Below, piece after piece: positions 1 to 64,000 of a stretch of 64,000 nt of DNA. The stretch covers positions 1-64,000 of the IMG/VR virus record IMGVR_UViG_3300023210_000013; one strand, written 5' to 3'. This stretch comes from a virus. Within the stretch, counting starts at the first letter, position 1. Each line of letters starts with the position of its first letter. The notes under the pieces were generated by a model. It ran no database searches. It saw nothing but the letters and a program-made list of their open reading frames with translations, and had not been told where the DNA came from. The position numbers and the translations under genes were made by a program.

Positions 1-177
1 ATCAATAATGATGACCGTGAAGAGATTATAGATGCTATGGGTGACATTATGGTCACCTTGATTATTCAAGCTAAGATGCAAAATCTTAGTTTAGAAGAGT
101 GTCTTGAAAGTGCTTACAATGTAATTACAAAACGTACAGGTAAAATGATTAATGGTCAATTTGTAAAAGATAATTAA
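1..177 (+). CDS. MazG-like nucleotide pyrophosphohydrolase (5'-truncated by window)
   Basis: Frame 1 reads INNDDREEIIDAMGDIMVTLIIQAKMQNLSLEECLESAYNVITKRTGKMINGQFVKDN*. The EIIDAMGD...AY..I..R.GKM..G.FVK pattern is typical of phage MazG-like proteins. Confidence 0.8.
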   Translation: MNNDDREEIIDAMGDIMVTLIIQAKMQNLSLEECLESAYNVITKRTGKMINGQFVKDN

Positions 178-178
178 C

Positions 179-373
179 ATGAAATTATACGATGTACCTA
201 GAAACAGTAGAATAAGAGTAAAGACCAAAGATAAAGTGCCACCTGCTGCTCCTGAGATTGAATCAGGAGAAGAGCTTAACTTCAGGTCTATAGATGGAAT
301 GTATAGTTACTGCACCAGAGATAATGGTGAGGTAGTACATTTAGCAGCATGGACAGAAGTAGAAGTACTTTAA
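179..373 (+). CDS. hypothetical small beta-rich protein
   Basis: 64-aa ORF starting 1 nt after the MazG stop. Confidence 0.6.
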   Translation: MKLYDVPRNSRIRVKTKDKVPPAAPEIESGEELNFRSIDGMYSYCTRDNGEVVHLAAWTEVEVL

Positions 374-405
374 TTGTACTGTGTCACTAATTTTTCTTAT
401 ATTTG
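373..405 (+). promoter_or_regulatory. Bacteroidota sigma70-type promoter (-33 TTG / -7 TATATTTG)
   Basis: TATATTTG at 398-405, with TTG 21 nt upstream, lying 24 nt before the ATG at 430. Confidence 0.65.
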
Positions 406-429
406 TGACAGTTAAAAACCAAATAATTT

Positions 430-1275
430 ATGGGATATTCAAAACCAAAAGAGACTACTCGTGCTTATTTAGAGTCAGCCTCATTACCATCACACGGTGA
501 AACATACACCGTTATACCTCACAAAGAGGTAATACAAAACACTCTTAACATGTTAAACGCCAGTGGTTTTCATGTTACCAGAGAATTATACAGAGCAAAC
601 ATGAATGCTAATGTTGCTCAAGGTATATATCATATAGTACCACGCAACCCAATTGATGATAGTATTAAAAATGAAAAAGAATTAGGGATGATGTTTGCAT
701 GGACCAATTCATATGACAAGAGTACACGTTTTCAATGTGCTATTGGAGGATATGTTATGGTTTGTTACAACGGTATGGTTGCGGGTGATATGATGTCATT
801 TGCAAGAAAGCATACTGGATCTGCTGATCATGAAATTAAAATGCAAATTTCTAATCAAATTAAAAATGCAGAAAAGTATTATGCACGTATAATTAAAGAT
901 AAAGATTCTTTAAGAAATGTCACAGTATCACGTAAAGAACAATCTGAGTTATTAGGTCGTCTATATGCTGAAAAAGATATTTTAGATCTTAGTCAATTAT
1001 CAGTAGTTAAATCAGAAATGGATAAGCCATCTTATGATTACAATGCTGATCAAGAAAATGCCTGGGCCTTTTACAATCATGTTACACATGCTCTTAAAAA
1101 ATCACATCCTCGTGGTTGGTTAAGTAACACACAAAAATTTCATGAATTTATTGTAGGAGACTTGCTAGGTCAGATGGGAATTCAGACTCAAGATACCGTA
1201 GTTTCTACTCAGACAAATCTATTTGATATAGAAGTGGTTGAAGAAGAAGTTATTAGTCATGAGTTTGAATTATGA
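430..1275 (+). CDS. DUF932/DUF945-like phage protein
   Basis: Y..IPH, WTNSYDKS, V.VCYNGM and RKHTG motifs plus a C-terminal NAWAFYNHVTHALK. Confidence 0.7.
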   Translation: MGYSKPKETTRAYLESASLPSHGETYTVIPHKEVIQNTLNMLNASGFHVTRELYRANMNANVAQGIYHIVPRNPIDDSIKNEKELGMMFAWTNSYDKSTRFQCAIGGYVMVCYNGMVAGDMMSFARKHTGSADHEIKMQISNQIKNAEKYYARIIKDKDSLRNVTVSRKEQSELLGRLYAEKDILDLSQLSVVKSEMDKPSYDYNADQENAWAFYNHVTHALKKSHPRGWLSNTQKFHEFIVGDLLGQMGIQTQDTVVSTQTNLFDIEVVEEEVISHEFEL

Positions 1276-1364
1276 TTAAAGCATTAATAGAAATTATAGT
1301 AACTATTATATTATTTGCTTTATCATTAATAATTTTTACTAGAGGTAGAAATTCAGAAGATTAA
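1272..1364 (+). CDS. 30-aa single-TM peptide
   Basis: ATGA overlap with the upstream stop; MIKALIEIIVTIILFALSLIIFTRGRNSED. Confidence 0.45.
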   Translation: MIKALIEIIVTIILFALSLIIFTRGRNSED

Positions 1365-1415
1365 GGAGAGAACCAAACCTGCCAGTTAATAGCTGGCGGG
1401 CTCTCCTGTTTTCTT
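1365..1415 (+). terminator. GC-rich hairpin / probable intrinsic terminator
   Basis: GGAGAG-(AACCAAA bulge)-CCTGCCAGTT-aat-AGCTGGCGGG-CTCTCC followed by TGTTTTCTT. Confidence 0.55.
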
Positions 1416-1427
1416 AAACAAAAATTT

Positions 1428-1607
1428 ATGAAAAAAAATGTATCAGATTCAAGACAAGAAGCAGAAAGAGTTTATAAAAAACTTGGCAAAAAAGATGGTC
1501 AAAAACATTTAGACCAAATTTTATGTTTTGTTGGTGGTATGAATTCTAAAAACTTAGTTGAATATTGGACAAAAGTAAATACATATTTTAATGAAAAAAA
1601 AATATAA
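1428..1607 (+). CDS. hypothetical protein (59 aa)
   Basis: MKKNVSDSRQEAERVYKK...EYWTKVNTYFNEKKI; A-rich leader; C-terminal YW..V motif resembles that of 1683..1892. Confidence 0.55.
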   Translation: MKKNVSDSRQEAERVYKKLGKKDGQKHLDQILCFVGGMNSKNLVEYWTKVNTYFNEKKI

Positions 1608-1695
1608 TTGGTATAAAATAACAGCGTGGATTATAATATTTACTATTACAGTATTATTATGGTCTTCACTATATAATTTATTATGGAGAACTTAA
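1591..1695 (+). CDS. 34-aa membrane peptide
   Basis: MKKKYNWYKITAWIIIFTITVLLWSSLYNLLWRT; fills the gap and overlaps both neighbours. Confidence 0.45.
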   Translation: MKKKYNWYKITAWIIIFTITVLLWSSLYNLLWRT

Positions 1696-1892
1696 ACCCT
1701 TTATCAAAAGCAAATCAATTAGTTGATGAGATGATGTCTCCTGTTGATGAATGGAATAAGTATCCTATGTGCAGAGATACTGCAGTACAGTGTGCTCTTA
1801 TTGCTGTAAATCACCTTATAAATGAAACCGGACGTAAGTACTGGTATGAAGTTAAACATTTTTTAGAAACCTTTAACACCAAAGAGAGATGA
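1683..1892 (+). CDS. hypothetical phage protein
   Basis: QCALIAV...YWYEVK motif, recurrent in Bacteroidota phage small ORFs. Confidence 0.65.
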   Translation: MENLNPLSKANQLVDEMMSPVDEWNKYPMCRDTAVQCALIAVNHLINETGRKYWYEVKHFLETFNTKER

Positions 1893-2128
1893 CAGAGAAA
1901 GATTTACATGTATTATTAGAAGTACAATATCTAAAAGGAAGATTAGATGAACTAGAATACAAAGCAAAGCCTCATGTGTTTGGTTTACATAAATCCCGTA
2001 AGTTAGACATGCGTATTGATAAGTATTATAATAAACTTAAAAATACATCAGAACTTGCATATCATTTACATCAAATAGAAAGAACTAATGTTAGAGAAAG
2101 TAAAAACAAACATATTAAACATGAATAA
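1889..2128 (+). CDS. hypothetical protein
   Basis: ATGA overlap with the upstream gene; 79 aa. Confidence 0.6.
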   Translation: MTEKDLHVLLEVQYLKGRLDELEYKAKPHVFGLHKSRKLDMRIDKYYNKLKNTSELAYHLHQIERTNVRESKNKHIKHE

Positions 2129-2522
2129 AAAAATAGAACCTTTTGGTCATCCACTTAGTGATCTTCAAGAACACTCAGAAACTAAAACAGAATTAGCTAT
2201 AAGTGCTTGTAATACATTGTATCCAGAAACAGTAGCGGAGTTTAAAAAGATACAGCAAGAACAGCTTGAGTTGTTCTGTAAAAAACAAATGGATTACGGT
2301 CCAGAAAATATAACTCTTGGCAGAAGAATAGATGATCCTAAAAACCTTAAGCTTAGTTTGCTAGGTATATGGTTTAGAAGCAATGACAAAATACAAAGAG
2401 TATTAAACCTTGTACAAAGTAATAGAGATCCAGAAAATGAAAGTTTAGAAGATTCATGGATAGACCTATCAAATTACTCAATTATATCAATGCTTATTAG
2501 CAGAAACAAATGGGGTAAATAA
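2121..2522 (+). CDS. DUF1599 / nucleotide-modification-associated domain 1 protein
   Basis: KKQMDYGPENI, R.NDKIQR..NL and ESLEDSWIDLSNYSII motifs. Start placed at ATG 2121, overlapping the upstream stop; the ORF track starts at 2088. Confidence 0.75.
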   Translation: MNKKIEPFGHPLSDLQEHSETKTELAISACNTLYPETVAEFKKIQQEQLELFCKKQMDYGPENITLGRRIDDPKNLKLSLLGIWFRSNDKIQRVLNLVQSNRDPENESLEDSWIDLSNYSIISMLISRNKWGK

Positions 2523-7866: not shown

Positions 7867-8058
7867 ATGAGCAACGTAACAAAAGAAGTGTTTAATCACA
7901 AACTAACAGTGCAGTTTTTACCTGCAGAACCTTTAGTAGGTTTAAACATACATAATACACATGTAATATGTGCAGATGAAATCCCTAGACCATTGTTTGG
8001 TTTAGAACTAGGGTTTTTATTTTTTACCATAAGCTACACAAACGTAAGCTGGAAATAA
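7867..8058 (+). CDS. hypothetical protein
   Basis: 63 aa with an A-rich leader; hydrophobic beta-like C-terminus GLELGFLFFTISY. Confidence 0.6.
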   Translation: MSNVTKEVFNHKLTVQFLPAEPLVGLNIHNTHVICADEIPRPLFGLELGFLFFTISYTNVSWK

Positions 8059-8069
8059 ATTCAATTTCC

Positions 8070-8101
8070 TTTGGTAAAAACTTTCAATTTTTGTAAATTG
8101 A
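8070..8101 (+). promoter_or_regulatory. promoter of the RNR operon (TTTG-N20-TAAATTGA)
   Basis: TTTTGTAAATTGAAT resembles the motif at 53588; -33 TTTG at canonical spacing. Confidence 0.5.
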
Positions 8102-8114
8102 ATATACAAGATAA

Positions 8115-8160
8115 AGCTATGGTATCAATATAATATTTTTGATAGCATAGCTATTTTTTT
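8115..8160 (+). terminator. 14-bp hairpin plus U-tract in the nrdB leader (terminator or attenuator)
   Basis: AGCTATGGTATCAA-loop10-TTGATAGCATAGCT (one mismatch) followed by ATTTTTTT. Confidence 0.5.
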
Positions 8161-8186
8161 CTCAAAATTATTTTAAAACAATAAAT

Positions 8187-9167
8187 ATGAACAAAGACAT
8201 TTTTAGTCCCAGGGTAAATATATTGCCCTATGAGTACCCTCAGTTATTAGCATATAAAGATGCTATTAGACATTCTTATTGGATAGATACTGAGTTTAAT
8301 TTTACAGAAGATATTCAAGACTTTAAAGTCACTATATCAAAAGAAGAAAGAGATGTCATTAAAAAGACTATGTTGGCCATTGCTCAAATAGAAGTTAATG
8401 TAAAAACTTTTTGGGCAGACCTTTATAAGAGAATGCCTATTACTGAAGTGGGTGATGTTGGGATGACATTTGCTGAATCTGAAGTAAGACATAAAGATGC
8501 TTACGCTAGGTTGCTTAGAATACTAGGACTTGAAAAAGAATTCCAAACTGTTATTGATGTACCGGCTATTGCAGGTAGACTTAAGTACTTAAAGAAGTAC
8601 CTAAATGGTACACGTTCTAAAGATAACAAGATGTATACTAAATCAGTGCTGTTATTTTCTTTATTTATAGAGCACGTAAGTTTGTTTAGTCAGTTCTTAA
8701 TCATGATGAGCTTTAACAAAGAAAAGAATGTCTTTAAAGGTATATCTAATGTTGTTGAGGCAACATCAAAAGAAGAAGATATCCACGGTAACTTTGGTGC
8801 TGAACTTATTAATATCATTAAAAAAGAAAACCCTGAGTGGTTTGATGAAGAGTTTGAGGAATTAATTTATTCTGCATGTAGAAAAGCTTATAGAGCTGAA
8901 TGTGGTATACTAGACTGGATCTTTGAACAAGGTGAACTTAGCTTTTTACCACAAAATACAATACAGCATTTTATTAAAAATAGATTTAACAACTCACTAG
9001 AAAAGATAGGTATGAAACCAATCTTTGAAGTTGACTTAGAACTATTAAAGTCCACTGAGTGGTTTGATATAGAAATACTAGGAACCAAAGAAGGAGACTT
9101 CTTTTATAAGAAGAGTGTGGATTACAACAAGAAAAGCAAGAGCATCACAGAAGATGACTTATTTTAA
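8187..9167 (+). CDS. nrdB: ribonucleotide reductase class I beta subunit (NrdBi / class Id-like)
   Basis: Ferritin-like ligands E69, E99xxH102, Y106, FIEHVSLF and EEDIH; K73 follows the first ligand; C-terminal DFF..K.VDY. Confidence 0.95.
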   Translation: MNKDIFSPRVNILPYEYPQLLAYKDAIRHSYWIDTEFNFTEDIQDFKVTISKEERDVIKKTMLAIAQIEVNVKTFWADLYKRMPITEVGDVGMTFAESEVRHKDAYARLLRILGLEKEFQTVIDVPAIAGRLKYLKKYLNGTRSKDNKMYTKSVLLFSLFIEHVSLFSQFLIMMSFNKEKNVFKGISNVVEATSKEEDIHGNFGAELINIIKKENPEWFDEEFEELIYSACRKAYRAECGILDWIFEQGELSFLPQNTIQHFIKNRFNNSLEKIGMKPIFEVDLELLKSTEWFDIEILGTKEGDFFYKKSVDYNKKSKSITEDDLF

Positions 9168-9178
9168 AAATTAATACA

Positions 9179-9322
9179 ATGTCAGAAAGTACACAAACAA
9201 ATGGTAACACCCAACTAAACAATGAAAGAGGAAACTTTAATCAAAGAGTTTCTAAATTTTCAATGTTGGGTAAATCCAAAAAAGTCCAATGGGACGGTAA
9301 AAGAAGAAACAGAACAATATAA
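9179..9322 (+). CDS. hypothetical 47-aa basic protein between nrdB and nrdA
   Basis: MSESTQTNGNTQLNNERGNFNQRVSKFSMLGKSKKVQWDGKRRNRTI; fills the intergenic gap. Confidence 0.55.
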   Translation: MSESTQTNGNTQLNNERGNFNQRVSKFSMLGKSKKVQWDGKRRNRTI

Positions 9323-9331
9323 AAAACTAAC

Positions 9332-10957: not shown

Positions 10958-11213
10958 TAAAAAATTACTTAAGTTATTAGCTTATACAAATAAGCTTACA
11001 ACATATCAAAAGATTGCATCCCGTATAGGTTATATGGGTGCAGGCTTTTTGATTGCAGCTCAATGGACTTTAGAACCTGCTTTATTTATAGTAGGGTTTA
11101 TTTTTGTAATAGTGCAAACATCATCCAGGAAACAATGGAATTTAGTTGTGTTGAACTTAAATGGTTTGATTGCTTGGACTGTGCATTTTATACAAACTTA
11201 TTTAGCACAGTAA
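10947..11213 (+). CDS. small 3-TM membrane protein
   Basis: GTG start overlapping the nrdA end; three hydrophobic segments; RKQWNLVVLN. Confidence 0.6.
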   Translation: MKVNKKLLKLLAYTNKLTTYQKIASRIGYMGAGFLIAAQWTLEPALFIVGFIFVIVQTSSRKQWNLVVLNLNGLIAWTVHFIQTYLAQ

Positions 11214-11612: not shown

Positions 11613-11617
11613 AATGA

Positions 11618-11902: not shown

Positions 11903-11911
11903 TGTAATTTA

Positions 11912-13093: not shown

Positions 13094-13133
13094 ATTTAAT
13101 AGTTTTAAAAGGTTGTACGTTGGTTTGTACAGA

Positions 13134-13148: not shown

Positions 13149-13167
13149 ATTATTTTTATATGAAAGA

Positions 13168-18888: not shown

Positions 18889-18892
18889 ATCA

Positions 18893-51446: not shown

Positions 51447-51450
51447 GGTG

Positions 51451-53003: not shown

Positions 53004-53008
53004 TGTGT

Positions 53009-53575
53009 CTATGTTTCAAATTCATCATAGTCCTTCAGTGTTTTTGTAGTTGAAGTTAAATTTGGATCATACAGTTGTGAAACTTTTATCTTACTTTGCA
53101 TTTTTAAATACTTTGTCCAGTTCAGAGGATATTCTTGTGCTACCGTTCTTTTAAATTCTCTGTTGGCAACAAAAGACCATAACTCTCTGTTTTTGAACTT
53201 ATACTTAGTTGACCAATTTGTGTAAAATATTTTTCCTATGTTTCCGTCTGTATCCCAATTTTTATTTCTTAATACTTTACCATATTCATTAGATCTTGAA
53301 TAATCAATGTTTACTGTTTTTGCCGGTGGGCAAGTCCCAATAAATAAATAACCCAATGAGTCTGGTAACTCTACACCTTCTCTATGTTTTATAACTCCTT
53401 CCCACAATGCTCTATTGTATAGCTTAATTATTTGTTTTAACTTAGCATCATCAATATGGGCATATAAGGGTTTACGCTCTTTAAATTCTTTAAATGTTTC
53501 TTTATTGAGAAGACCTAATGTTTTCTTCCTATACCTAGGAGCATTTAAATCAGGCTTCTTAAAATTATTTATCAT
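53009..53575 (-). CDS. IHF/HU-like DNA-binding protein of crAss-like phages
   Basis: Basic; II..YN......I.....GVELP..LG...I pattern; located at the start of the tail module. Confidence 0.55.
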   Translation of the reverse strand: MINNFKKPDLNAPRYRKKTLGLLNKETFKEFKERKPLYAHIDDAKLKQIIKLYNRALWEGVIKHREGVELPDSLGYLFIGTCPPAKTVNIDYSRSNEYGKVLRNKNWDTDGNIGKIFYTNWSTKYKFKNRELWSFVANREFKRTVAQEYPLNWTKYLKMQSKIKVSQLYDPNLTSTTKTLKDYDEFET

Positions 53576-53587
53576 ACTTACTACATT

Positions 53588-53601
53588 ATTAATTTACAAA
53601 A
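53588..53601 (-). promoter_or_regulatory. conserved phage promoter motif
   Basis: - strand TTTTGTAAATTAAT, 12 nt upstream of 53575. Confidence 0.55.
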
Positions 53602-53635
53602 AAAAGCTCACTTATGAAAGCTAAAACGTGCTTCT

Positions 53636-54859
53636 TTACAAAGCTTGGTAAGTTAATTCACAAATGTTACCCATTGTAGGGTGTTGTAACTCTAACTTAC
53701 CTGATCTTCTATTACCAACAAATTTATTTGAATAATGATAATAATCAGTCTTACCTAAACTAGGTAAAGTTTTTTCTATAAAGCCTGCTGTTTCATTTGA
53801 TGTCATATACTCTACTTTTCTATCAGTATGTATGTGACCTTTAAATAATGTTCTGTTTGTAGTATCACCCCATGCCTTTGGGTATTCTGATGCATATATT
53901 AAAGGGTTGTTTTTACTACGCTTATCTCCATGTTCAAATGCATTAAAGTTATTATGCCAAACATGTACTTTTCTTTCTTCATATTTTACATCCCAAGTTA
54001 TTTCATCAGAAGTAATTGATTTAGAAAGCGCGTGTGCTAAATGAAAAGATGATAATCTATCATGATTACCAGGAACATAAACCACTACTAATTTGTTACA
54101 AAAAGCTTTGATATAATTAATTGCCCAATGCATTGCATCAAAGGCCTTCATATAAGCCTCTGTAGAGCTCATACAATTGTCTAAAGGAGTTCCGCTTGTA
54201 GTTGTGCCATGAAAGGTATCCATGTTGATTAAATCACCTCCTACAACAAAGTACATTGTATCTATAGAGTGAGCTGGTGTAGCTCTTTCTAATAAGTTTA
54301 TAATTGTGTCTTCAAAATCTTTATCTATTGTTTCATTACCTTCTTTACCAAAATGAATATCTTGCAATGAAATTACACCACAAACCTTTTCTTTATTTTG
54401 TACTATACCTGAATTGGTTTTAGGTATTTTATAAGTTTTGGGAGTCCAAGATTCTAATAATTTTTCAAAATCACTTGATGAAGTTTCCTTAACTCTTGAT
54501 ATTAAGGCTGATACGCGCCAATGGTCTCCCATTTGCTTATTCCAATATTGAGATAATTTCCATATTGAAGTATCAATTTTTAATAATGATATTATTTCTT
54601 CTGCTGATTTTGGTTCATGATTAAATGTACCAGATATTTTCCCTGTACCTTTATCAAGATCTATTGCCTCTGTAACATTAACATCTTGTGATATTTTCTG
54701 TAAATGTTTTTTCTTTTTTTTAGATAACCTTCTTTCTAAAAGAACTTCTTTTTTAAGCTTTACATATTCTGATTCTAAAATACCTAATTTAGCTGCACAA
54801 TATGTGGGATGTTTTTTCCACTTTAAAGTTTCTTTTATTTGTTCCTTGAGGTTTTGCAT
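53636..54859 (-). CDS. calcineurin-like metallophosphoesterase with N-terminal extension
   Basis: DIHFG, GGD, PGNHD, EHGD and GHIH motifs. Start moved to ATG 54859 because a promoter overlaps the track start 54886. Confidence 0.85.
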   Translation of the reverse strand: MQNLKEQIKETLKWKKHPTYCAAKLGILESEYVKLKKEVLLERRLSKKKKKHLQKISQDVNVTEAIDLDKGTGKISGTFNHEPKSAEEIISLLKIDTSIWKLSQYWNKQMGDHWRVSALISRVKETSSSDFEKLLESWTPKTYKIPKTNSGIVQNKEKVCGVISLQDIHFGKEGNETIDKDFEDTIINLLERATPAHSIDTMYFVVGGDLINMDTFHGTTTSGTPLDNCMSSTEAYMKAFDAMHWAINYIKAFCNKLVVVYVPGNHDRLSSFHLAHALSKSITSDEITWDVKYEERKVHVWHNNFNAFEHGDKRSKNNPLIYASEYPKAWGDTTNRTLFKGHIHTDRKVEYMTSNETAGFIEKTLPSLGKTDYYHYSNKFVGNRRSGKLELQHPTMGNICELTYQAL

Positions 54860-54883
54860 AATAATGAAGATTTTTAAATTTAC

Positions 54884-54891
54884 CAAATATA
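54884..54891 (-). promoter_or_regulatory. Bacteroidota -7 promoter TATATTTG
   Basis: Exact consensus just downstream of a terminator and 24 nt upstream of ATG 54859. Confidence 0.6.
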
Positions 54892-54907
54892 ATGAATTTC
54901 TTCTAAT

Positions 54908-54937
54908 AAAAAAAAGAGGCCCCTAAACGGAGCCTCT
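54908..54937 (-). terminator. intrinsic terminator
   Basis: - strand AGAGGCTCC-gtttag-GGGCCTCT stem followed by a T-tract. Confidence 0.85.
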
Positions 54938-54945
54938 CCAACGTT

Positions 54946-54973
54946 AGTAGTAGAAAACCAACAAACCACCACT
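54946..54973 (-). ncRNA. candidate 3'-UTR structured RNA hairpin (loop UUUGUUGGUUUU)
   Basis: AGUGGUGG/CUACUACU stem forms only on the - strand (needs G-U pairs), just before the terminator. Confidence 0.3.
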
Positions 54974-54987
54974 TCTCTGTTGTTATT

Positions 54988-55545
54988 TTATAAAGTAGTA
55001 ATCAATATTTCAACTGAGTCACAATAGACTCCACCAAATAAAGATTGCACTTTTATTTTATAATCTGTTGCTGTAGTTAATCCTGTTATTTCAAACTTTG
55101 ATTCAAGAACTGAAATAGGAGTTAAATTAGCTGTAGTCCATCCCGAAGGTGTTACTACTGTATCATACTGAACATTAAAACTTGCACTTAAAGATGAAGC
55201 ACCATTCCACACTACAGTAGCTTTATTAGCTTCAATTCCTTGAGCATATACATTGTAAGGAGCATGATGTACATTATCTGCAGTACATGCGCCTAAACCA
55301 TTAACCATTGTTAAAGCCATTTTTTGTAAAATCTGATCAAGTCTTTCTCCTGATTGAATTTTAAAAATACCTGCTGCTGTTTCTATTTGAAAAGAAGTTC
55401 CACAATAACTAACACACTCAGTACATTGAACATCATCACAACGTTCATTACCTACTGAACATTCTGTATATCCGCAAGGTGTAGCATAACTGCTGTCTTT
55501 GCACCCACAAGGTTTTGAACTATTTTTATTACAATTACAGGACAT
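54988..55545 (-). CDS. Cys-rich structural protein with C-terminal FN3-like domain
   Basis: N-terminal Cys cluster; P.NV...ATVVW...ITGLTTATDYKIKVQS. Confidence 0.7.
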   Translation of the reverse strand: MSCNCNKNSSKPCGCKDSSYATPCGYTECSVGNERCDDVQCTECVSYCGTSFQIETAAGIFKIQSGERLDQILQKMALTMVNGLGACTADNVHHAPYNVYAQGIEANKATVVWNGASSLSASFNVQYDTVVTPSGWTTANLTPISVLESKFEITGLTTATDYKIKVQSLFGGVYCDSVEILITTL

Positions 55546-55562
55546 ATTATTTTATATTTTTT

Positions 55563-57245
55563 TTAAGGTTGAGGTAGACATATTTGTTCAAGAGTTACTG
55601 TTACACCTGGTACAGGTGTGTAAGCACGCGCACATATAGTTATAACCGGTCTTACATCTGGTTCAGCACTAAATAATATAGTTTGGTCAGGAAATCCGTC
55701 ACAATTAACATATTGAAATGCTGTTGATTGGTTTGCTATTCCTTCAACTCTATATTGATTACATATTTGTGGTGTTTCTGCTTGAGCTGTTTCAAAAGGA
55801 ACATCATCACAATACGTTGTAAACCCATTTAAGTTTATTACAAGTTTAACTACATAACTTGTTTCAGCAGATAAGCCCGTTGCATTAAAGCTTACAACAG
55901 CACCTGGGTTATTTCTAACTTCAGTGAATGCTATTGTTTGCGGTAAAGAAACTGTCATAACATATAAACTATATGTTGCTGTTGTTCCTAAATTATTTGT
56001 AAATGCTACCGTTGCTGTTGAATCTGTTATAGAACTAACACCTATATCTGAAGGGCAATTAGATGGGCTAGATAGAGTTTTACTAATACTGTCACTACAC
56101 TGGTTAGTACCATCTGTTGCACAAAATGCAACTTGCGTTGTAAATCCTTGAAATTTATTAAGTGATGCCAAAGATACTACCACAGGTGATCCTGATTGAG
56201 CAATACTTATATCTGTAGTAGTTGATGTAGATCCACCAATACCATCTGTTATTGTAAGAGTTGTAAAACCATTACAATCACTATATGCTGGTGGTATGTT
56301 ACATCCTGAAAAATTAAAAGAAATAGATGATGCATTTCCTGTAGCATCTGTATTAAGAGTTGCTGAATAAGCAAATGTAATATCATCACACCCACTTCCA
56401 CAACAAGTTGTTTGTATTGATTCTATTGCAGCATACATATCACATACTATAGCCCATAAGTTACCATGAGATTGAGCAAGTGTTGATGGGTTATTAACCC
56501 AACTACCAGCTGAACCGTAAGTAGCACTACTTGATAACATTCCTGTTGATCCAGTTATACAACTTTGATTGATTGCTAAACCTATTAAGGCAGGACTACC
56601 AACTGCATTTTCTAAATTACATAATTTAGATTCAACTTCTGATAACAAAGCTGTTACAGCCATTGATAAACCAGGATTGATACATTGGGATATAAGACTT
56701 CCAGATCCACCGCCTCCTGCCGGAGTACATGATCCATCTGTTAAAACACAATTTTCTAATGTAATTAATCTTGTTTCATGATTATTAATAGTAACATTAA
56801 TTAAATTAATACTATCTAATATATCACAAATTTTTCCAGCTAGATACGCTGCATATAAATCTAATCTTAAAGCTGTTATTTGTTGAACTCCTACAGTATA
56901 ATATAAACATATTGGTAAATCTATAGTAGGTAAAACATACGCTGGTTTTTCAGTAGTATTACATATTTTATCAATAATTAACTGTAAAGTATCTGAGAGT
57001 TTTTTTGGAGCTTCTTGTCCTCCAGGTAATACACATTTTAAATCAAGACCTGAAAGATCAGGTTCTCCTGCAACTGAATCTATAATTTTACAAAGCTCTT
57101 CAGCAAGCTTTGCAATAACTTCACTTACACTGTCACCATTGCATATGTCTATACACGGTAGATCCGGACCTTGCCAGATGACACAATTTGAAGATATGTT
57201 AGAGCACGGTGTTGTGCTTCCATTATTCGTTGGTATCATAAACAT
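55563..57245 (-). CDS. Cys-rich structural protein with FN3-like domain
   Basis: SSNCVIWQGPDLPCI..CNGD motif; SSITDSTATV...TGLSAETSYVV. Confidence 0.7.
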   Translation of the reverse strand: MFMIPTNNGSTTPCSNISSNCVIWQGPDLPCIDICNGDSVSEVIAKLAEELCKIIDSVAGEPDLSGLDLKCVLPGGQEAPKKLSDTLQLIIDKICNTTEKPAYVLPTIDLPICLYYTVGVQQITALRLDLYAAYLAGKICDILDSINLINVTINNHETRLITLENCVLTDGSCTPAGGGGSGSLISQCINPGLSMAVTALLSEVESKLCNLENAVGSPALIGLAINQSCITGSTGMLSSSATYGSAGSWVNNPSTLAQSHGNLWAIVCDMYAAIESIQTTCCGSGCDDITFAYSATLNTDATGNASSISFNFSGCNIPPAYSDCNGFTTLTITDGIGGSTSTTTDISIAQSGSPVVVSLASLNKFQGFTTQVAFCATDGTNQCSDSISKTLSSPSNCPSDIGVSSITDSTATVAFTNNLGTTATYSLYVMTVSLPQTIAFTEVRNNPGAVVSFNATGLSAETSYVVKLVINLNGFTTYCDDVPFETAQAETPQICNQYRVEGIANQSTAFQYVNCDGFPDQTILFSAEPDVRPVITICARAYTPVPGVTVTLEQICLPQP

Positions 57246-57280
57246 CTTATTTTAAAACCTAGTAACTTACCGGTATATAA

Positions 57281-57294
57281 TATAATATACAAAA
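57281..57294 (-). promoter_or_regulatory. conserved phage promoter motif
   Basis: - strand TTTTGTATATTATA, 35 nt upstream of 57245. Confidence 0.65.
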
Positions 57295-57369
57295 GTTTTT
57301 GCAATCAAACAAGTAGTTCAATCACTTTAAGTTATAAAATAAGATGTTATGTATATAGTATACTAATAA

Positions 57370-57642
57370 TTAGTTATCTACTAGTGCCGGTTCTGCTTCA
57401 GAAATAGCACCATCTGCTAAAGAAATATTAACTTCTCCATACGTTTCTTGTAACGTAGCAGACATTTCTTTTAATGAATTTTTTAAAGATGCATGATCTT
57501 GAAGTAATTCATATTTAGCAATTTCAATATTACCTAAATTTACTAAAGCATTATTAATATTAGATTGTAAAGTTTGTAAAGCTACTAATTCTTCAGATGT
57601 AACTTTTTTTGATTCTACAACTTTTTTTAATTTTTTTGCCAT
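57370..57642 (-). CDS. small coiled-coil protein (possible fibre assembly chaperone)
   Basis: Heptad helix ending L.E.YG.V.I.L.DG.I. Confidence 0.65.
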   Translation of the reverse strand: MAKKLKKVVESKKVTSEELVALQTLQSNINNALVNLGNIEIAKYELLQDHASLKNSLKEMSATLQETYGEVNISLADGAISEAEPALVDN

Positions 57643-57671
57643 GATGGTTTATTTTTATAATGTTTATACTT

Positions 57672-57679
57672 CAAAGATA
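57672..57679 (-). promoter_or_regulatory. Bacteroidota -7 promoter TATCTTTG
   Basis: Exact consensus 29 nt upstream of 57642. Confidence 0.55.
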
Positions 57680-57703
57680 ATAAAATTATTTTAATTATAA
57701 TTA

Positions 57704-58894
57704 CTATCTAGGTACCATTTTTTGCATGTAAATAGTCAAACCATTTTCTAATTCAAATGCCATAGTACCAAACTTCTCATCAAAATAAGCATTTTTAACT
57801 CCTTCCATACTACCACCATCTGCACCTGCAGGACCTGCCGGTCCCGGTGCTCCTGCAGTACCTGTATTACCTTTTGGACCTGTTGATCCAGCGGGCCCTC
57901 TAGCTCCTGCTGCCCCGGTATTACCTTTAGCTCCAGCCGCACCAGCTGCTCCAGTAAGCCCTCTTGCACCGGCTGCTCCTGCAGCACCAGTATTACCTTT
58001 AGCTCCAGCTGCTCCAGCCGCACCAGCTGCTCCTGTTAGTCCTCTAGGTCCTTGTAAATTTGTAGCTTCTCCTACCCATATACCTTTACTATCAATTACT
58101 GTTGTACCTGCTATAGCTAGAAAACCTACATCAGCTACATTTTTTAATTTTAATCTACCGTTTGTAGTTAATGACATTGCTCCATCATTATTTCCTTGAC
58201 CTTCATATTTCCAAACCCATCCTCGGTCTGCATCATTATTCATTTGAAATACTGTAGCATAATCATTTAAATAACCATAAGATTGACCAGATACCATACC
58301 AAGACCATAAGTAGTTGAATTACCCCAGAATCTATATTTACTTGAATTATCACCTGAATTAGTATAGTGACTTGCTCCACCATTTGGTCCGGCTGGACCT
58401 ACTGCACCAGCATCACCTTTGGCTCCAGCTGCTCCGGCTGCACCTGCAGAACCGGCAGGCCCTCTAGCACCAGCTGCCCCAGCTGTCCCGGCTGCTCCTG
58501 TAAGTCCTCTTGCTCCTGCTGAACCCGCGTCTCCTTTTGCACCTGCGGCTCCAGCGTCTCCCTTAGCACCTGCTGGTCCTCTTGCACCAGCTGATCCGTT
58601 AGTACCGTCTGTTCCTGCAGGTCCTCTATCACCTTTAGCACCCGCTGCTCCATCTGCCCCATTTGAACCATCTGTTCCTGCGGGACCTCTTGCTCCATCA
58701 GCTCCGTCACTACCATTAGTTCCATTAGTCCCGTCAGCACCTCTTGCACCACCGTCACCCTTTGGACCTGTTAATCCTACACCCCCGGTATTTCCTTTTG
58801 GGCCTACAAATTGAGGAAAATTAGTAGTATTAAAGTTTCCTGTGTGTAATGCTTCATTACCACCAATTGTTGTTCCTTGTTTTAAATCTGCCAT
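57704..58894 (-). CDS. collagen-like tail fibre protein
   Basis: Two Gly-X-Y tracts flank a globular insert; N-terminus MADLKQGTTIGG...HTGNF resembles the T4 gp36 N-terminus. Confidence 0.8.
   Translation of the reverse strand: MADLKQGTTIGGNEALHTGNFNTTNFPQFVGPKGNTGGVGLTGPKGDGGARGADGTNGTNGSDGADGARGPAGTDGSNGADGAAGAKGDRGPAGTDGTNGSAGARGPAGAKGDAGAAGAKGDAGSAGARGLTGAAGTAGAAGARGPAGSAGAAGAAGAKGDAGAVGPAGPNGGASHYTNSGDNSSKYRFWGNSTTYGLGMVSGQSYGYLNDYATVFQMNNDADRGWVWKYEGQGNNDGAMSLTTNGRLKLKNVADVGFLAIAGTTVIDSKGIWVGEATNLQGPRGLTGAAGAAGAAGAKGNTGAAGAAGARGLTGAAGAAGAKGNTGAAGARGPAGSTGPKGNTGTAGAPGPAGPAGADGGSMEGVKNAYFDEKFGTMAFELENGLTIYMQKMVPR
57820..58810 (-). repeat. collagen Gly-X-Y repeats (two tracts, about 57820-58050 and 58380-58810)
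   Basis: GAAGAK/GARGPA/GTNG repeats; locally high GC. Confidence 0.85.
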
Positions 58895-58895
58895 T

Positions 58896-58997
58896 TTATT
58901 GTATATTTTGATTTGCTGTCACTAAACATTCAGTTGAAGAACACCCTGAGCCTTCTCCACCACATACTTCACACAAATATAATTCTTTATTATTCAT
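58896..58997 (-). CDS. 33-aa Cys4 micro-protein
   Basis: MNNKELYLCEVCGGEGSGCSSTECLVTANQNIQ; overlaps the upstream stop and ends 1 nt before the next ATG. Confidence 0.45.
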   Translation of the reverse strand: MNNKELYLCEVCGGEGSGCSSTECLVTANQNIQ

Positions 58998-60852
58998 TGT
59001 CTTCTATTATATTATGTGCATTTACACTTCCTCTTTTAGTAGATTTACCTAACACACCTGTAATACCAAGTGGATCTACTTCATAAATTCCAGGTAATGC
59101 CCACCATGTTTTATGTGATGTCTTACCATTATAGTAATCTAACCATCTTAAATGTATTTGATCATCTCCTTCTTTAAATCTAGAGACTCTAATATTACCC
59201 CCATTAGCTCCTACACTACCAAGTGTTTTTGTATTGTTATCAGCACTTCCATTTTCATAATTACCAAAAGCTCTACACCAGTGTTTAGTGTAAAACTCAT
59301 TACCTTGAGCATCAGTAAACCAATGCGGTAAAAACCAATAAGCCATTAATGACCATTTATCTTTTTCTACATTACCTGCTCCTGGGTAATGTGAATAAGG
59401 GTTTGTTGTATTACTAGTTCCTGAATAAGCATATGTAGGTACTAGTGAACCATTACTTCTTGTATGTGTACCTAGATAATTATTACCAGAAGTTTTTTCT
59501 TGACAATTCATCCAGATTAATCCAACATACATTTTATTAGAATCTATATTAACATAACCTATTTCACTATATCTGTTAGAATCACCTGTTAAGTTTTTAC
59601 CTTCATGGATGCTATATTCATTTCTTGCAGTAAGCGTTCTATTAAACCATCTTACTTGTTCTGTATCAAATCCAGATCCATATTGAGAATCTCCAAGGTT
59701 TGGTCTATTAGTTAAGTTTTTAGGTGAAGCCCATAAATCATAATAACTACCAGGATTACCTAATTGAAAACCTATATGTTCTGAAACATGTTGCCCAGAT
59801 AAAATATTTGATTGAATAGATGCATAACCTTTTGAATAAGGATGCATTCCACAACGTTGTATCTGTATATTCCGTATAGAAGAAATACCCTCATCAATAG
59901 AATCAGTCATATGATAATGTCCAGTTCTTAAATATTTAGCGGGAGCTCCACCTGTATTACTACCACTTGGTGTATCTCTTGCAGGACTCCACATAAAATA
60001 ATAATCAAATGTTTCCCATTCTACAGACTTAGAATCTTTTGAAGCAGATCTAATCCAACCATCTGAATCAGATGCAGACCAAAAATATGATCTTACACTA
60101 CCTCCAGCAGCAAACCTATCTCTAGATATTTTATGCTGCCCTGTCATTCTAACATATTCTCCTTCATATAATGATGCTCTACCAGTTTCTGGTATTGTAA
60201 AATATTTATGATGAAAACCATATCCTGTACCGTCATAGTTTATTTCAACCATGCTTTCACCATTATCTAAATCAGGACCATAACCTTCACTTCCAACTTC
60301 TCCCCAAATAGATGGTACTGCGTAAGAAACATATGCAGCATCTGCACCTGATGTATTTGTATGCAACACCTCTCTTATAATTCCCAATGCTGATGTACCT
60401 ATTGCCGCATAAGGATGTCTATGTGTAGGTCCTAAAGATAAACCTGGTAAATTAAACCAATGATTTGCTCTAACCATATCCATACTTTCTGCAAGATCTG
60501 AATTAGTTCCTATTGCATCAAATGATGATAAACAATAAAAAACATTTCCAAATTCATTAGAATGTATTGCTTTTAACTTGTTTGCTAAATTAGTTCTTTC
60601 TGCATCAGATGCATATACATCATATCTTCTAATGCCTTCAACCAATGTCATTTCTGGATGACTTATAATAGCAAGTGATAATCCCCTACCTCCTACATTT
60701 TCTCCTTGTTTACCATTATCCCATCTTATATATCCGGCACCAGTTTCATTAGCGTTATAACTTGTACCCTTGACCTCAATAAGGGAATGTAATGCCCCTA
60801 TGTGATCATGTATATTATTAACTTTTAAATCTCTGGTTTTAGTCAGTCTCAT
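58990..60852 (-). CDS. tail fibre hinge/receptor-binding protein with ILEI-like N-terminal domain
   Basis: RGLSLAII....YDVY......LA..L....SFDA...R.PYAAIG; W-rich beta-sandwich C-terminal half. Confidence 0.6.
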   Translation of the reverse strand: MRLTKTRDLKVNNIHDHIGALHSLIEVKGTSYNANETGAGYIRWDNGKQGENVGGRGLSLAIISHPEMTLVEGIRRYDVYASDAERTNLANKLKAIHSNEFGNVFYCLSSFDAIGTNSDLAESMDMVRANHWFNLPGLSLGPTHRHPYAAIGTSALGIIREVLHTNTSGADAAYVSYAVPSIWGEVGSEGYGPDLDNGESMVEINYDGTGYGFHHKYFTIPETGRASLYEGEYVRMTGQHKISRDRFAAGGSVRSYFWSASDSDGWIRSASKDSKSVEWETFDYYFMWSPARDTPSGSNTGGAPAKYLRTGHYHMTDSIDEGISSIRNIQIQRCGMHPYSKGYASIQSNILSGQHVSEHIGFQLGNPGSYYDLWASPKNLTNRPNLGDSQYGSGFDTEQVRWFNRTLTARNEYSIHEGKNLTGDSNRYSEIGYVNIDSNKMYVGLIWMNCQEKTSGNNYLGTHTRSNGSLVPTYAYSGTSNTTNPYSHYPGAGNVEKDKWSLMAYWFLPHWFTDAQGNEFYTKHWCRAFGNYENGSADNNTKTLGSVGANGGNIRVSRFKEGDDQIHLRWLDYYNGKTSHKTWWALPGIYEVDPLGITGVLGKSTKRGSVNAHNIIEDNE

Positions 60853-60856
60853 TTTC

Positions 60857-62263
60857 TTATACTATAAATCTCATTGTTGTTCCATCATATGTAATAACTG
60901 ATCCATTAATACCTAATGATGTACCGTCAAATGTTAAGTTTGCTTCCCCATTAACTGTTGTTCCACCTGTAGCTGTTATTACTCTATTGTTACTATTATT
61001 TAAAACATCTAAAGTAGGTCCTGTTGCACCGTCAGTTCCGTCAGTCCCATTGGTACCGTTAGTTCCATTAGTTCCGTTTGTTCCATCAGTACCATCAGTA
61101 CCATCAACACCAGGATCACCTTTAGCCCCAGGGTCACCCTTGGCTCCTGGATCACCTTTTTCACCGGGCTCTCCTTTTTCACCAGGATCCCCTTTAGCTC
61201 CGGGATCTCCATTAGTACCATCAGTACCATTGGTGCCATCTACTCCGTTAGTTCCATTGGTTCCATTGGTTCCGTCTGATCCATTTGTTCCTGGATCACC
61301 ATCAACCCCATCAACCCCATTGGTTCCATCACTTCCATCTGTTCCGTTGGTACCATTTGTACCATTTGTACCATCTGTACCCGGATTACCTTTGTCTCCT
61401 TTAGGTCCTGTATTCCAAGAACATGCACCTGAATCTGAGTTATAAGTTGAATCACCGCCAGGAAGTATTATAACACCAGGCATCCATTTTAAAGATCCCG
61501 TGTCTGCATTATGTTGAGCAATAAGTAACCAATTTTCATTAGGTATAACACTTGAACCATTATAATCAAGAACATGCAATGTACCTGATTGATAATCTTC
61601 ACCGTATTTTTGTATCCAATATAATCCCCACCATCCTGGAACGTCAATTCCTGTATTAGCGGGTATATCTATGTGACCATTACTACTTAAGTTTTTACTT
61701 ACAGGTATACAGATAATCCTAGATGTCCACTTTAATACACCGTTTTTCCAAGTAACAGTACCACCACCACTCATAGAGTAGTTAGCATGTGCACCTTCAA
61801 ATACAGTTGTTAAATCTTGATCAACTGTTGCACCTGCACTAATACCATCTAATTTTGTTTTTAATGCTGCTGTAAAGTTCTTTGTGGTTAATCCACCGTC
61901 ACCTACAGAATATGTTGTGTCTTTATCTGATGTTGTAACCGTTGATGTTGTATCATCTGCATGAGTAAATGTAATTGTATCATTACTAACTGATGCTGAT
62001 TTAATTGGGTTTACACTAGCATCTAATTTATTACCAATGCTGGTAGATATAGTTGTAGAAAAATTAGGATCATCACCTAATGCAGCTGCCAATTCATTTA
62101 ATGTATCTAATGTAACAGGTGCGGAATTAACTAAGTTTGTTATAGATGTTGTTACAAATTCTTTTGTAGCAACAGTTTTACCCAAGTGAGTCATTACATC
62201 AGTAGATGCAATCTGTTCTCCGCTTATGGTTAATTCTCTTTTAGATGGTGTAGTTGTTGCCAT
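60857..62263 (-). CDS. tail fibre protein with collagen repeats
   Basis: LVNSAP.TLDTLNELAAALGDDPNF fibre motif; (GTN/GTD)n and GDPG[AE]K tracts; C-terminal NNRVITATG...GEANLTFDG. Confidence 0.85.
   Translation of the reverse strand: MATTTPSKRELTISGEQIASTDVMTHLGKTVATKEFVTTSITNLVNSAPVTLDTLNELAAALGDDPNFSTTISTSIGNKLDASVNPIKSASVSNDTITFTHADDTTSTVTTSDKDTTYSVGDGGLTTKNFTAALKTKLDGISAGATVDQDLTTVFEGAHANYSMSGGGTVTWKNGVLKWTSRIICIPVSKNLSSNGHIDIPANTGIDVPGWWGLYWIQKYGEDYQSGTLHVLDYNGSSVIPNENWLLIAQHNADTGSLKWMPGVIILPGGDSTYNSDSGACSWNTGPKGDKGNPGTDGTNGTNGTNGTDGSDGTNGVDGVDGDPGTNGSDGTNGTNGTNGVDGTNGTDGTNGDPGAKGDPGEKGEPGEKGDPGAKGDPGAKGDPGVDGTDGTDGTNGTNGTNGTNGTDGTDGATGPTLDVLNNSNNRVITATGGTTVNGEANLTFDGTSLGINGSVITYDGTTMRFIV
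61018..61410 (-). repeat. collagen-like tandem repeats
   Basis: GTNGTNGTDG and GDPGEK/GDPGAK repeats. Confidence 0.85.
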
Positions 62264-64000
62264 TATCTTAATCTTTTTCTATTATGTTTGTGTTTGATAT
62301 TAGTCTTTTTTGCTGCATCATGCATGGATGAATAATTCACACTCATAGAACCAGCTTCAACATAAAAAGGACTTCTATCATAAAAACCTTTTGCTGAAAT
62401 CTTTACTTTTAATTGTGTACCTGTAGAAGTGAATACATGAGATTCACTTGAGGTCATATTATATGATTCATACGTTGATCCATTATCATTAGACACTTGA
62501 GCATTTACAGTGCAATTAGCAGGTATAACAAAATTATCCATATTATGTAAAAAAACCATATCAACGTTTGCATTATTTTCTAATGTAAACGTACCATATA
62601 CTACATGCCAATCACCTATAAGTTCATATGGATGTTGATCTTCTCTATGTATTTTAAAAGAATGACCATCACCTGAGTATCCCATCCTTATCCAGTATTT
62701 ACTACCGTTAGCTGATTCCATTAAAACAGGTGAGTGACCGTAGTCACTTTGTGCTGTAGAACCTCTACCATTAGTAGTTGTATCTTCTTTGTGGCTGCTT
62801 CTTCTTCTAGGAGCCCAGGTTTTACCTGCACCTATATCATGATAACATAAGTCCAACATTGCCCATCCTCTGTCAGCACCAACAAACATAAAATTCTTTG
62901 AACCTGGTAATTTATCAGTAGGAGTACCTTCTGTCTTTTGAAATTTTGATCCTACTCTTAAGTAACCGGGTTGATTAACATTTGTAGTAACATTATTTAA
63001 TGGGTTAGCTTCTATTACATTTGGAACACCTCCGGTAAAACAAGGAGTATAATCTACTTTTAATATATGATCATATCCACCACACATTATAACATTTGGT
63101 TCTGAGTTAGGGTTTATAACAAATAAACCAGGATCTCTATTATACCCATTAACTGTCTTAACTGAATTAGTTCCTGCTACAGTATCTTCTAAATCACACC
63201 ATAGTGTTTTTGCGTCATTTGTTGAAGCATCTAGTATAACAGTAAATCCACCGTTCCCTTCATAATCCCAATAATACATTCTATCATTTACTTCATCATA
63301 AGATAAAGAACCTCTATAACCATTTCTATCATTAGTTGCAGAACCATCATATTTAGTTACTGAAGATTCTAACATTTGTTGTTCTCCTGTAAGTAAATTT
63401 CTTCTTGGAAATTTTTTGTAATGTCTAGCATCATGTTCTGAAGCATATATCCAATCACCCGCGGCACACAAACCACCAGCATACCAATACCCAGTTCTTC
63501 TGACATATCCATTTGCTCTTGAGTTTGTACCAGATGTATCAATAAAATCTGTAGGGTTTGGATGACTTGGTCTATCTTCTCTAATTACGGCACCTCCATT
63601 AGTAATACCATCTTTAGCACCTCTATAATCAAATATAGAATAGCCATATACATTGTAAGACATAACAACAGCTTTACCAGCACCCTTAGCCATAGCTACA
63701 GATTGCATGTGATTATATGTACTAGTTGTGTCTCTCCATAATGCATGACTATCATGATATAACTTAGTCATTGTACCATCATTATTAAGTCTTCTGAAAG
63801 CTACGCCATCACCCCAACCACATGTCATTAATATATCACCATCTATATCATATGAGTTATGTCCACCAATACATCTTTCTCCACCATCATATTCACCTGA
63901 TCCGCTATTAATAATGGCATTACTCATCCCTCCCTTTTGAACAGGACCTAGTGCATGAGTACCCTCATAGTCTGTCATAAAACAACCAACAACTTCAGAA
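62263..64000 (-). CDS. virion structural/tail protein, beta-propeller-like (5' end probably outside window)
   Basis: Frame is open from the window edge (SEVVGCFM...); beta-rich; C-terminal VSNDNGSTYE...H.F.STG.QLK.KI module. Confidence 0.65.
   Translation of the reverse strand, partial: SEVVGCFMTDYEGTHALGPVQKGGMSNAIINSGSGEYDGGERCIGGHNSYDIDGDILMTCGWGDGVAFRRLNNDGTMTKLYHDSHALWRDTTSTYNHMQSVAMAKGAGKAVVMSYNVYGYSIFDYRGAKDGITNGGAVIREDRPSHPNPTDFIDTSGTNSRANGYVRRTGYWYAGGLCAAGDWIYASEHDARHYKKFPRRNLLTGEQQMLESSVTKYDGSATNDRNGYRGSLSYDEVNDRMYYWDYEGNGGFTVILDASTNDAKTLWCDLEDTVAGTNSVKTVNGYNRDPGLFVINPNSEPNVIMCGGYDHILKVDYTPCFTGGVPNVIEANPLNNVTTNVNQPGYLRVGSKFQKTEGTPTDKLPGSKNFMFVGADRGWAMLDLCYHDIGAGKTWAPRRRSSHKEDTTTNGRGSTAQSDYGHSPVLMESANGSKYWIRMGYSGDGHSFKIHREDQHPYELIGDWHVVYGTFTLENNANVDMVFLHNMDNFVIPANCTVNAQVSNDNGSTYESYNMTSSESHVFTSTGTQLKVKISAKGFYDRSPFYVEAGSMSVNYSSMHDAAKKTNIKHKHNRKRLR

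Follow-up and report, generated by a model that had tools for sequence, protein, structure and literature searches.

Recognition sites of the Type II restriction enzymes known to us are 4-8 bp long and those of Type III enzymes 5-6 bp; all restriction enzymes known to us read at least 4 base pairs, and we know of no defence that selects against a three-base word genome-wide. Here we analysed a 64,000-nucleotide stretch of viral DNA (positions 1 to 64,000 of IMG/VR record IMGVR_UViG_3300023210_000013, hereafter the window), from which the word TCG and its complement CGA have almost disappeared. The closest known phenomenon is restriction-site avoidance, which, according to a survey of the subject, is common in virulent double-stranded DNA (dsDNA) phages and mostly concerns orthodox Type II sites (Rusinov et al. 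2018, PMC6286503). Phage T7 escapes Type III restriction with all 36 of its EcoP15I sites kept and only their orientation arranged (PMC3874151). On the side of the enzymes, DarT of the DarTG defence ADP-ribosylates thymidine at TNTC on single-stranded DNA only (PMC5179494), and the chlorovirus nicking endonucleases Nt.CviPII (CCD) and Nt.CviQII (RAG) are natural three-base enzymes that cut one strand (PMC3017599), so that reading of three specified bases on one strand has enzymatic precedents. A literature search found no paper describing a TCG/CGA purge in phages.

The window, part of a genome rated complete by CheckV (a single contig of 115,581 bp), contains 449 CG dinucleotides in all, among them 16 TCG and 4 CGA, and no TCGA. 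The whole genome (115.6 kb) has 32 TCG and 10 CGA (42 in total), likewise with no TCGA. Synonymous-codon shuffling within genes (300 runs) gave an expectation of 284 ± 15 for TCG plus CGA in the window (minimum 250), and first-order Markov simulation gave 279 ± 19 (minimum 222), against 20 observed. Near-total avoidance, as claimed in an earlier sequence-only reading of the window, was thus borne out (20 sites versus about 280), and all 17 sites listed there are genuine, but three had been overlooked (13559, 28089 and 33460). Two of these (28089 and 33460) lie among the 144 CG of the 25 kb at 14964..39927, mostly within giant virion-protein genes, where that reading had seen no site in the parts that it scanned (14961-39928). 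The surviving sites of the window are as follows.

190, 2829, 3095, 55144: surviving CGA
459, 957, 1110, 4107, 5767, 7615, 10502, 13559: surviving TCG
14961, 28089, 33460, 39928, 41969, 46204, 57227, 58223: surviving TCG (rest)

The other CG contexts are frequent in the window, as had been stated (ACG 165, CGT 239, CCG 183, CGG 127, GCG 85, CGC 79), but CG as a whole is also scarce (observed/expected ratio, O/E, 0.27-0.28), and most of this overall deficit is the TCG/CGA loss itself. Genome-wide, the bias survived the codon-preserving shuffles that the sequence-only reading had proposed as a check, with O/E of 0.09 for TCG and 0.05 for CGA versus 0.65-1.1 for the remaining six NCG/CGN words. 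O/E was 0.035-0.04 in the three junction frames where a CG transition leaves the protein unchanged and 0.12 in the frame nnT|CGn, where both transitions alter it; among in-frame codons, CGA made up 3 of 187 CGN and TCG 5 of 1606 TCN, and non-coding DNA held 5 TCG/CGA sites among 58 CG. When all words of 3-6 bases were ranked, TCG/CGA was the sole extreme (O/E 0.08, z = -21), followed by GCC/GGC at 0.57, and common 4- and 6-bp restriction palindromes showed no avoidance in the genome. Codon usage as the cause is ruled out by the synonymous and codon-order shuffles and the per-frame counts, and general restriction-site avoidance is ruled out because no other 4- or 6-bp word is strongly avoided. 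Overall, about 93-95% of TCG/CGA has been removed from this phage and its relatives via silent (synonymous) and non-coding changes; each site can be removed without a protein change, and the purge is free at the protein level.

We further compared the bases around the sites. The 42 survivors in the genome comprise 38 TCGT/ACGA and 4 TCGG/CCGA, with no TCGC/GCGA and no TCGA, where the expectations with both strands pooled were 92 for TCGG/CCGA, about 99 for TCGC/GCGA and about 170 for TCGA. TCGA, TCGC/GCGA, TCGG/CCGA and TCGT/ACGA are all depleted, which agrees with the earlier argument that a single 4-6 bp restriction site would not account for the loss. Relative to an unpurged sister genome, the density of TCG was 0.056, varying with the 3' base (A 0.001, C 0.023, G 0.078, T 0.093) and the 5' base (G 0.025, A 0.048, C 0.060, T 0.080); the effect thus ran A >> C > G ~ T on the 3' side and G > A > C > T on the 5' side, and in this comparison there was no signal beyond one flanking base on each side. 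Eleven TCG are clustered within 2.1 kb at genome 89,143-91,264 (L002 5143-7264); we looked for a longer motif shared by them and found none past the base after TCG. The small genes of this region had no counterpart by tblastn in the genomes of three relatives.

The purge also differs between the two physical strands. Five complete purged genomes of the window's clade were rotated so that terminase lay on the minus strand with coordinate 0 at its start, and sense TCG and sense CGA were compared with codon-order shuffles. In this rotated frame, TCG O/E was distributed as follows.

0-9 kb, minus-strand genes just left of the module divergence point: plus strand 0.03, minus strand 0.19
4-14 kb, first plus-strand genes: plus strand 0.28, minus strand 0.03
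14-37 kb, replication genes: plus strand 0.15, minus strand 0.03
30-46 kb, minus-strand gene block: plus strand 0.23, minus strand 0.10
40-49 kb, reductase genes: plus strand 0.11, minus strand 0.00
44-80 kb, giant-protein genes: plus strand 0.10, minus strand 0.04
Remaining ~35 kb: plus strand 0.06, minus strand 0.06

For about 75 kb from the module divergence point (5-80 kb), one physical strand was 2-10 times more tolerant of TCG than the other, regardless of how the genes were oriented, and the preference was reversed directly left of that point, whereas an unpurged control genome had both strands alike everywhere (O/E 0.56-0.87). Across whole genomes in a common orientation, TCG:CGA counts were 32:10, 39:5, 71:18, 44:15 and 52:30 in the purged genomes, compared with 585:599 in the unpurged one; in the genome with 39 versus 5 sites (G011), 34 consecutive sites fall on one strand over 58 kb. 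The first 3 kb of the plus-strand module held 200 TCG versus 9 CGA in 51 independent relatives, corresponding to O/E of 0.51-0.71 for sense TCG and 0.02-0.03 for sense CGA against codon shuffles. A conserved minus-strand gene inside this module (genome 96680-97084) follows the physical strand and not its own sense strand (sense CGA 12-17, sense TCG 0-1), and in the reductase block of five related genomes TCG was kept on the plus strand only (5 versus 0). Among minus-strand genes genome-wide, sense CGA numbered 16 and sense TCG 7, where the null ratio is about 1.8:1, and in the minus-strand structural module the purge is about equal on both strands after allowing for codon structure. GC and TA skews at four-fold sites tracked the sense strand, not the physical strand, so that the TCG asymmetry is specific to the word; a general replication skew was rejected as its explanation on the same grounds.

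This asymmetry, which the sequence-only reading had not noticed, narrows the possible mechanisms. A double-strand site is expected to be depleted symmetrically, and the 2-10-fold asymmetry over ~75 kb in five genomes departs from that expectation. The loss of TCGA was about what multiplying the effects on the two strands would give, or perhaps slightly greater, and together with the physical-strand asymmetry this roughly multiplicative loss fits a word read strand by strand, a fit that does not in itself prove a single-stranded substrate. The difference between plus and minus TCG irrespective of gene orientation, set against the symmetric unpurged control, would likewise agree with reading on single strands. 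A nickase model in which close opposite nicks produce double-strand breaks was rejected, since close opposite-strand pairs were no rarer than same-strand pairs.

With restriction-site avoidance, the present case shares the silent removal of a short word from a lytic phage in which no methyltransferase was found, a host group that keeps the word, and a degree of loss that varies among related phages. In contrast, the word here has three bases and is non-palindromic, all four of its one-base extensions are depleted, and the asymmetry between physical strands extends over tens of kilobases. The survivors of this asymmetric word lie mostly in one orientation, like the EcoP15I sites of T7, but more than 90% of the sites have been deleted here whereas T7 keeps all 36 (PMC3874151); moreover, a rule of a single orientation is broken by the switch at the divergence point, by the even distribution between strands in about 35 kb of structural genes, and by close inverted pairs, which show no special avoidance. 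DarT, a defence enzyme reading three specified bases on single-stranded DNA, is the kind of reader that the asymmetry suggests, although its word is another one and the strand that tolerates TCG here is not obviously the more exposed of the two. We know of no phage that escapes DarT through motif loss, and no DarT- or DarG-like gene was found in hosts, where no search was aimed at one. The chlorovirus nickases are virus-encoded together with cognate methyltransferases; no such gene was identified here, and protection would consist in the absence of the word.

The genome belongs to a distant crAss-like virus, judging from its proteins: terminase, portal and head protein (PHROG families), tail-ring proteins matched by Pfam CrAss_Ring_1 and CrAss_Ring_2, giant virion proteins and two divergent gene modules are all present, and the distance follows from a terminase only 23-27% identical to those of classified Crassvirales and of crAss-like Flavobacterium and Cellulophaga phages. 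Near-identical DNA occurred in seawater or marine metagenomes of 16 studies. The genome encodes a full-length GroEL (L003:13834-15453, i.e., genome 113,834-115,453) with 66-72% identity to Flavobacteriaceae GroEL, which, considered with the crAss-like ancestry, points to a host in the Flavobacteriales, probably Flavobacteriaceae. This GroEL is missing from the close relative G011, and looks like a recent gain from the host lineage. In 80 loci around GroEL from Flavobacteriaceae and other Bacteroidota, TCG/CGA was not depleted (Markov O/E 0.65-1.3) and TCGA was freely present, so that a background shared with the host group, one of the two refuting cases named in the sequence-only reading, is ruled out as the cause. 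Cellulophaga phage phi14:2, gut phage cr50_1 and Flavobacterium phage FPSV-S29 likewise had TCG/CGA O/E of 0.90-1.13, despite low total CG. Because the bias survives codon shuffles and the probable host group is undepleted, a phage-specific pressure on the DNA word itself is supported.

We next considered the spread of the purge in the family. All sampled relatives with a terminase identity of at least 71% were purged to varying degrees; among them, 80 IMG/VR relatives at 74-98% had a uniform hierarchy of depletion (TCGA > TCGC > TCGG > TCGT). The degree may differ several-fold between close relatives, and TCGA was at or near zero even in weakly purged ones (8 of 54 expected in L071), with 0-1 per purged genome. 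A sister clade at 60-64% terminase identity was unpurged (TCG 585, CGA 599, TCGA 145 and CG 2315 in its complete genome G005), and a third clade at 49-54% was a mix of strongly purged (e.g., G003, with TCG 48, CGA 34 and TCGA 2), half-purged and unpurged members. Across the family, 80 helicase-centred loci formed a continuum of O/E from 0.0 to 1.0. Some lineages have lost nearly all CG, whatever the flanking base (e.g., 14 CG in 15 kb, CG O/E 0.08), which suggests a related pressure reading CG alone; the near-CG-free loci are L443, L381, L452, L404, L407 and L164, the last being the cultured F. psychrophilum phage FPSV-S29. The unpurged G005 (loci L340-L346) avoids GCC/GGC instead, with a zero-order O/E of 0.32 versus 0.74 in the purged clade. 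Such a patchy, graded and word-switching spread is as expected from host-dependent DNA-targeting pressures, a link that we infer.

The sequence-only reading had also suggested searching the rest of the genome for a nuclease or modification gene, and this search found none that tracks the bias. Pfam and PHROG scans, which covered about 65 of the roughly 97 predicted proteins, revealed no methyltransferase, base-modifying enzyme or restriction-type nuclease; six-frame searches of the genome detected no C5, N4/N6 or D12 methyltransferase family, and no C5 methyltransferase was found in 12 relatives. No gene tracked the purge among those compared across related genomes. Three genes at first appeared to match it in 12 genomes, and a wider or more sensitive search then placed all of them in unpurged genomes. 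Specifically, a MoxR-like ATPase and its DUF2201/VWA partner, absent from unpurged G005, were present in unpurged G007 and G009, and a 170-aa protein (genome 93442-93954) that had matched the purge by single-sequence search belongs to a family found in unpurged genomes by profile search; four contigs scored as lacking it lack the region. A DUF1599-like match (nucleotide-modification-associated; 2088-2522) fell below the Pfam cutoff and had no homologue in the equally purged G011.

Our best reading, a tentative one, is that a host activity reading TCG on single strands exerts the selection. Such an activity would recognise about three bases, 5'-TCG-3', one strand at a time and with weak dependence on the neighbouring bases, and the success of a genome would fall in proportion to its number of TCG sites. 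The most likely source would be a defence system of the purged lineages' hosts that targets DNA, for instance a restriction enzyme of nickase type that cuts frequently or an enzyme by which single-stranded DNA is cleaved or chemically marked; a phage without a methyltransferase would escape by not carrying the target. The cost of a site would be set by the physical strand on which it lies, so that the DNA metabolism of the phage (replication, end processing or entry) would decide which strand is exposed or critical. Near the divergence point, sites on the strand that would template leading-strand synthesis and most transcription might be 5-10 times costlier than those on its partner, and in the early region, with its fast turnover, the costly strand alone would have been cleared. 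This inequality could arise if polymerases are stopped by a lesion or nick in the template strand, if the genome ends are at the divergence point and their resection exposes 3' tails, or if replication converges on that point. We infer that selection and not hypermutation is at work, that the agent is host-encoded and that its biochemistry is of the kind proposed. A host origin is favoured by the graded and patchy distribution and by the finding that no phage gene tracks the purge; a purge that is graded, absent from the sister clade and mixed in the third clade fits a host-dependent pressure.

Several points weigh against selection by such an activity. We know of no enzyme specific for TCG, and the present analysis identified none in either phage or host; the host assignment itself is putative, derived from GroEL similarity of 66-72% and crAss-like ancestry. 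Very large populations deplete a hypermutable word equally whether its mutations are lethal or silent, so that the frame test leaves room for hypermutation. The polarity of gains and losses is uncertain, as it comes from parsimony and small numbers. If the divergence point is an origin, the tolerant strand would be the one expected to be more exposed (the lagging-strand template and non-template strand), and a simple model in which the exposed strand is attacked would then need extra assumptions. Moreover, 20-89 sites are left per purged genome, so single sites are not lethal, and the second purged clade (G003) shows little strand asymmetry, although on few counts.

The main rival to selection is hypermutation, which we regard as unlikely. 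The C of TCG would be a mutational hot spot, through host methylation followed by deamination in the unrepaired virion or through a single-strand cytosine deaminase that prefers TCG, and the word would decay without any nuclease, its asymmetry reflecting which strand spends time single-stranded. The low overall CG (O/E 0.17-0.28) fits this explanation, as do the differences at these sites between close relatives, which are mostly CG transitions (TGA/CGA 53, CAA/CGA 24, TCA/TCG 17, TTG/TCG 12), a strand asymmetry typical of deaminases acting on single strands, and a depletion about 3 times weaker where both transitions change the protein (0.12 versus 0.035-0.04); with the UDG-family gene of the phage, ordinary C-to-U damage would be repaired and damage at methylated C would not. 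Nevertheless, the expected products are not in excess relative to the unpurged sister (TCA/TGA ratio 0.94, TTG/CAA unremarkable, TG/CA 1.17 in both), CpG transitions account for only 12 of 27 inferred losses, and in-frame CGA and nnT|CGn are still depleted at least 8-fold. The four-fold-site skews follow the sense strand whereas the TCG asymmetry follows the physical one, the candidate hosts are undepleted, and no methyltransferase was found in the phage, although a host enzyme could still act; if the divergence point is the origin, the strand that tolerates TCG is the one expected to be more exposed. The evidence thus leans against plain deamination-type mutagenesis, and of the host defence or modification, mutagenesis and phage nuclease put forward in the sequence-only reading, what is supported is a word-specific pressure on the phage, with none of the three singled out.

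The phage nuclease would be a weapon cleaving host DNA at TCG (in candidate hosts, each strand has one such site per 100 bp or so), with the phage protected by the absence of the word. We consider this improbable: the lack of an identified methyltransferase, the presence of a PD-(D/E)XK nuclease, an SbcD-like exonuclease, a RusA-like protein and many proteins without assigned function, and the precedent of three-base, frequent-cutting chlorovirus nickases, although these are paired with self-protection by methylation (PMC3017599), would agree with it, but the MoxR-like ATPase/VWA pair and the 170-aa protein also occur in unpurged genomes, leaving no gene that tracked the purge. Furthermore, the nucleases present are standard crAss-like replication and recombination genes with homologues in unpurged G005, the purge is graded between close relatives instead of all-or-none, and such an enzyme would also cleave the sites remaining in the phage itself, 11 of which fall within 2.1 kb. 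Still less probable is the summed effect of several ordinary restriction-modification systems with TCG/CGA-containing sites (TCGA and others) met across a broad host range. TCGA is indeed the most completely removed word, and avoidance of mostly orthodox Type II sites is common in virulent dsDNA phages according to the survey (PMC6286503), but depletion affects the four TCGN classes together, the non-palindromic TCGC/GCGA (0 of 99 expected) and TCGG/CCGA (4 of 92) among them, the flanks carry little information beyond one base, other common 4- and 6-bp sites are unavoided, and symmetric double-strand sites predict no asymmetry between physical strands. An effect on RNA, translation or CRISPR (clustered regularly interspaced short palindromic repeats) targeting, namely avoidance of CGA and TCG codons, an RNase acting at UCG/CGA in messenger RNA, or avoidance of a three-base protospacer-adjacent motif (PAM), is largely refuted by the frame and strand tests and is very improbable. 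Both codons are rare in many AT-rich genomes, and at the start of the plus-strand module (first 3 kb) TCG is retained on the sense strand while CGA is missing from it; against this, none of the three frames is spared the depletion and neither is non-coding DNA, the sense strand of structural genes has lost the word as well as its complement, the conserved opposite-strand gene follows the physical strand, and forty-odd leftover PAMs would still permit CRISPR targeting.

The gene content of the window includes the following (ORFs, open reading frames).

179..2522, plus strand: end of the replication/early module, encoding a DUF932 protein and the weak DUF1599-like protein (module start at genome 87,658, outside the window)
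7867..11248, plus strand: ribonucleotide reductase small and large subunits, a block embedded among minus-strand genes
11214..64000, minus strand: structural module including tail-fibre genes (ORFs of 1906, 4761, 1020, 857, 695, 1442 and 2041 aa)
51451-53003, minus strand: crAss tail-ring proteins 1 and 2 (Pfam)
53636-54886, minus strand: SbcD-like exonuclease, in the structural module

The replication module of the genome encodes an SNF2 helicase, a UDG-family protein, a DnaA-like helix-turn-helix protein, a DnaB helicase, a primase, the PD-(D/E)XK nuclease, a DNA polymerase, PhoH and GroEL. The genome also encodes the SbcD-like exonuclease and the RusA-like protein; no transfer RNA genes were found in it. 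The 4761-aa ORF (18893-33178, minus strand), with neighbours of 1906 and 2041 aa, had only 34% similarity over half its length to its counterpart in the close relative G011, as for a very fast-evolving giant virion protein. Many terminase relatives (P0001, P0002, P0004, P0005, P0010 and others) are 1087-1337 aa long, with their match to the query split into two stretches some way apart, a pattern that inteins or other insertions in the terminase gene would produce. What appeared as direct terminal repeats in three relatives falls within the structural module and may be due to overlaps in the assembly.

The divergent region lies outside the window, and no RNA families were found in it. A non-coding core of ~110 nt (L002:4860-4975, genome ~88,860-88,975) is 87-93% identical in relatives whose proteins reach only ~70-76%, and forms two small hairpins with compensatory changes; it had no Rfam match, and a role as a small RNA, origin or packaging element is possible. 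Summed contig depth was raised about 1 kb to the right of this core in three seawater runs (L002 5605-6538, genome ~89,605-90,538) over a separate non-coding segment that is ~70-73% identical in eight relatives. Two small early ORFs (L002:6316-6375 and L002:6737-6790, genome ~90,316-90,790) share an identical upstream arrangement consisting of ATAGACT, a T-run and TTTAC/TTTAT..AACCACTTAA ~20 nt before the start codon, which looks like a repeated terminator-plus-promoter unit, possibly for a virion RNA polymerase.

Taken together, these observations may, again tentatively, reflect a widespread marine conflict between hosts and phages over a three-base word, in which an undescribed activity would read 5'-TCG-3' on individual strands with a strand-dependent effect and sister lineages would be under related pressures with other specificities (almost all CG; GCC/GGC). 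A TCG-reading activity, should marine Flavobacteriia or their phages have one, would add a new class of specificity; it might also be a new type of defence, or an enzyme useful for frequent cutting or for nicking. The strand map of the survivors would then also record the replication or cell entry of these uncultured phages, and a strand pattern mirrored at the module divergence point is a rare clue, available from sequence only, to how an abundant family of uncultured phages handles its DNA. The natural contrasts within this family, with its purged, unpurged and all-CG-purged lineages, make the question testable.

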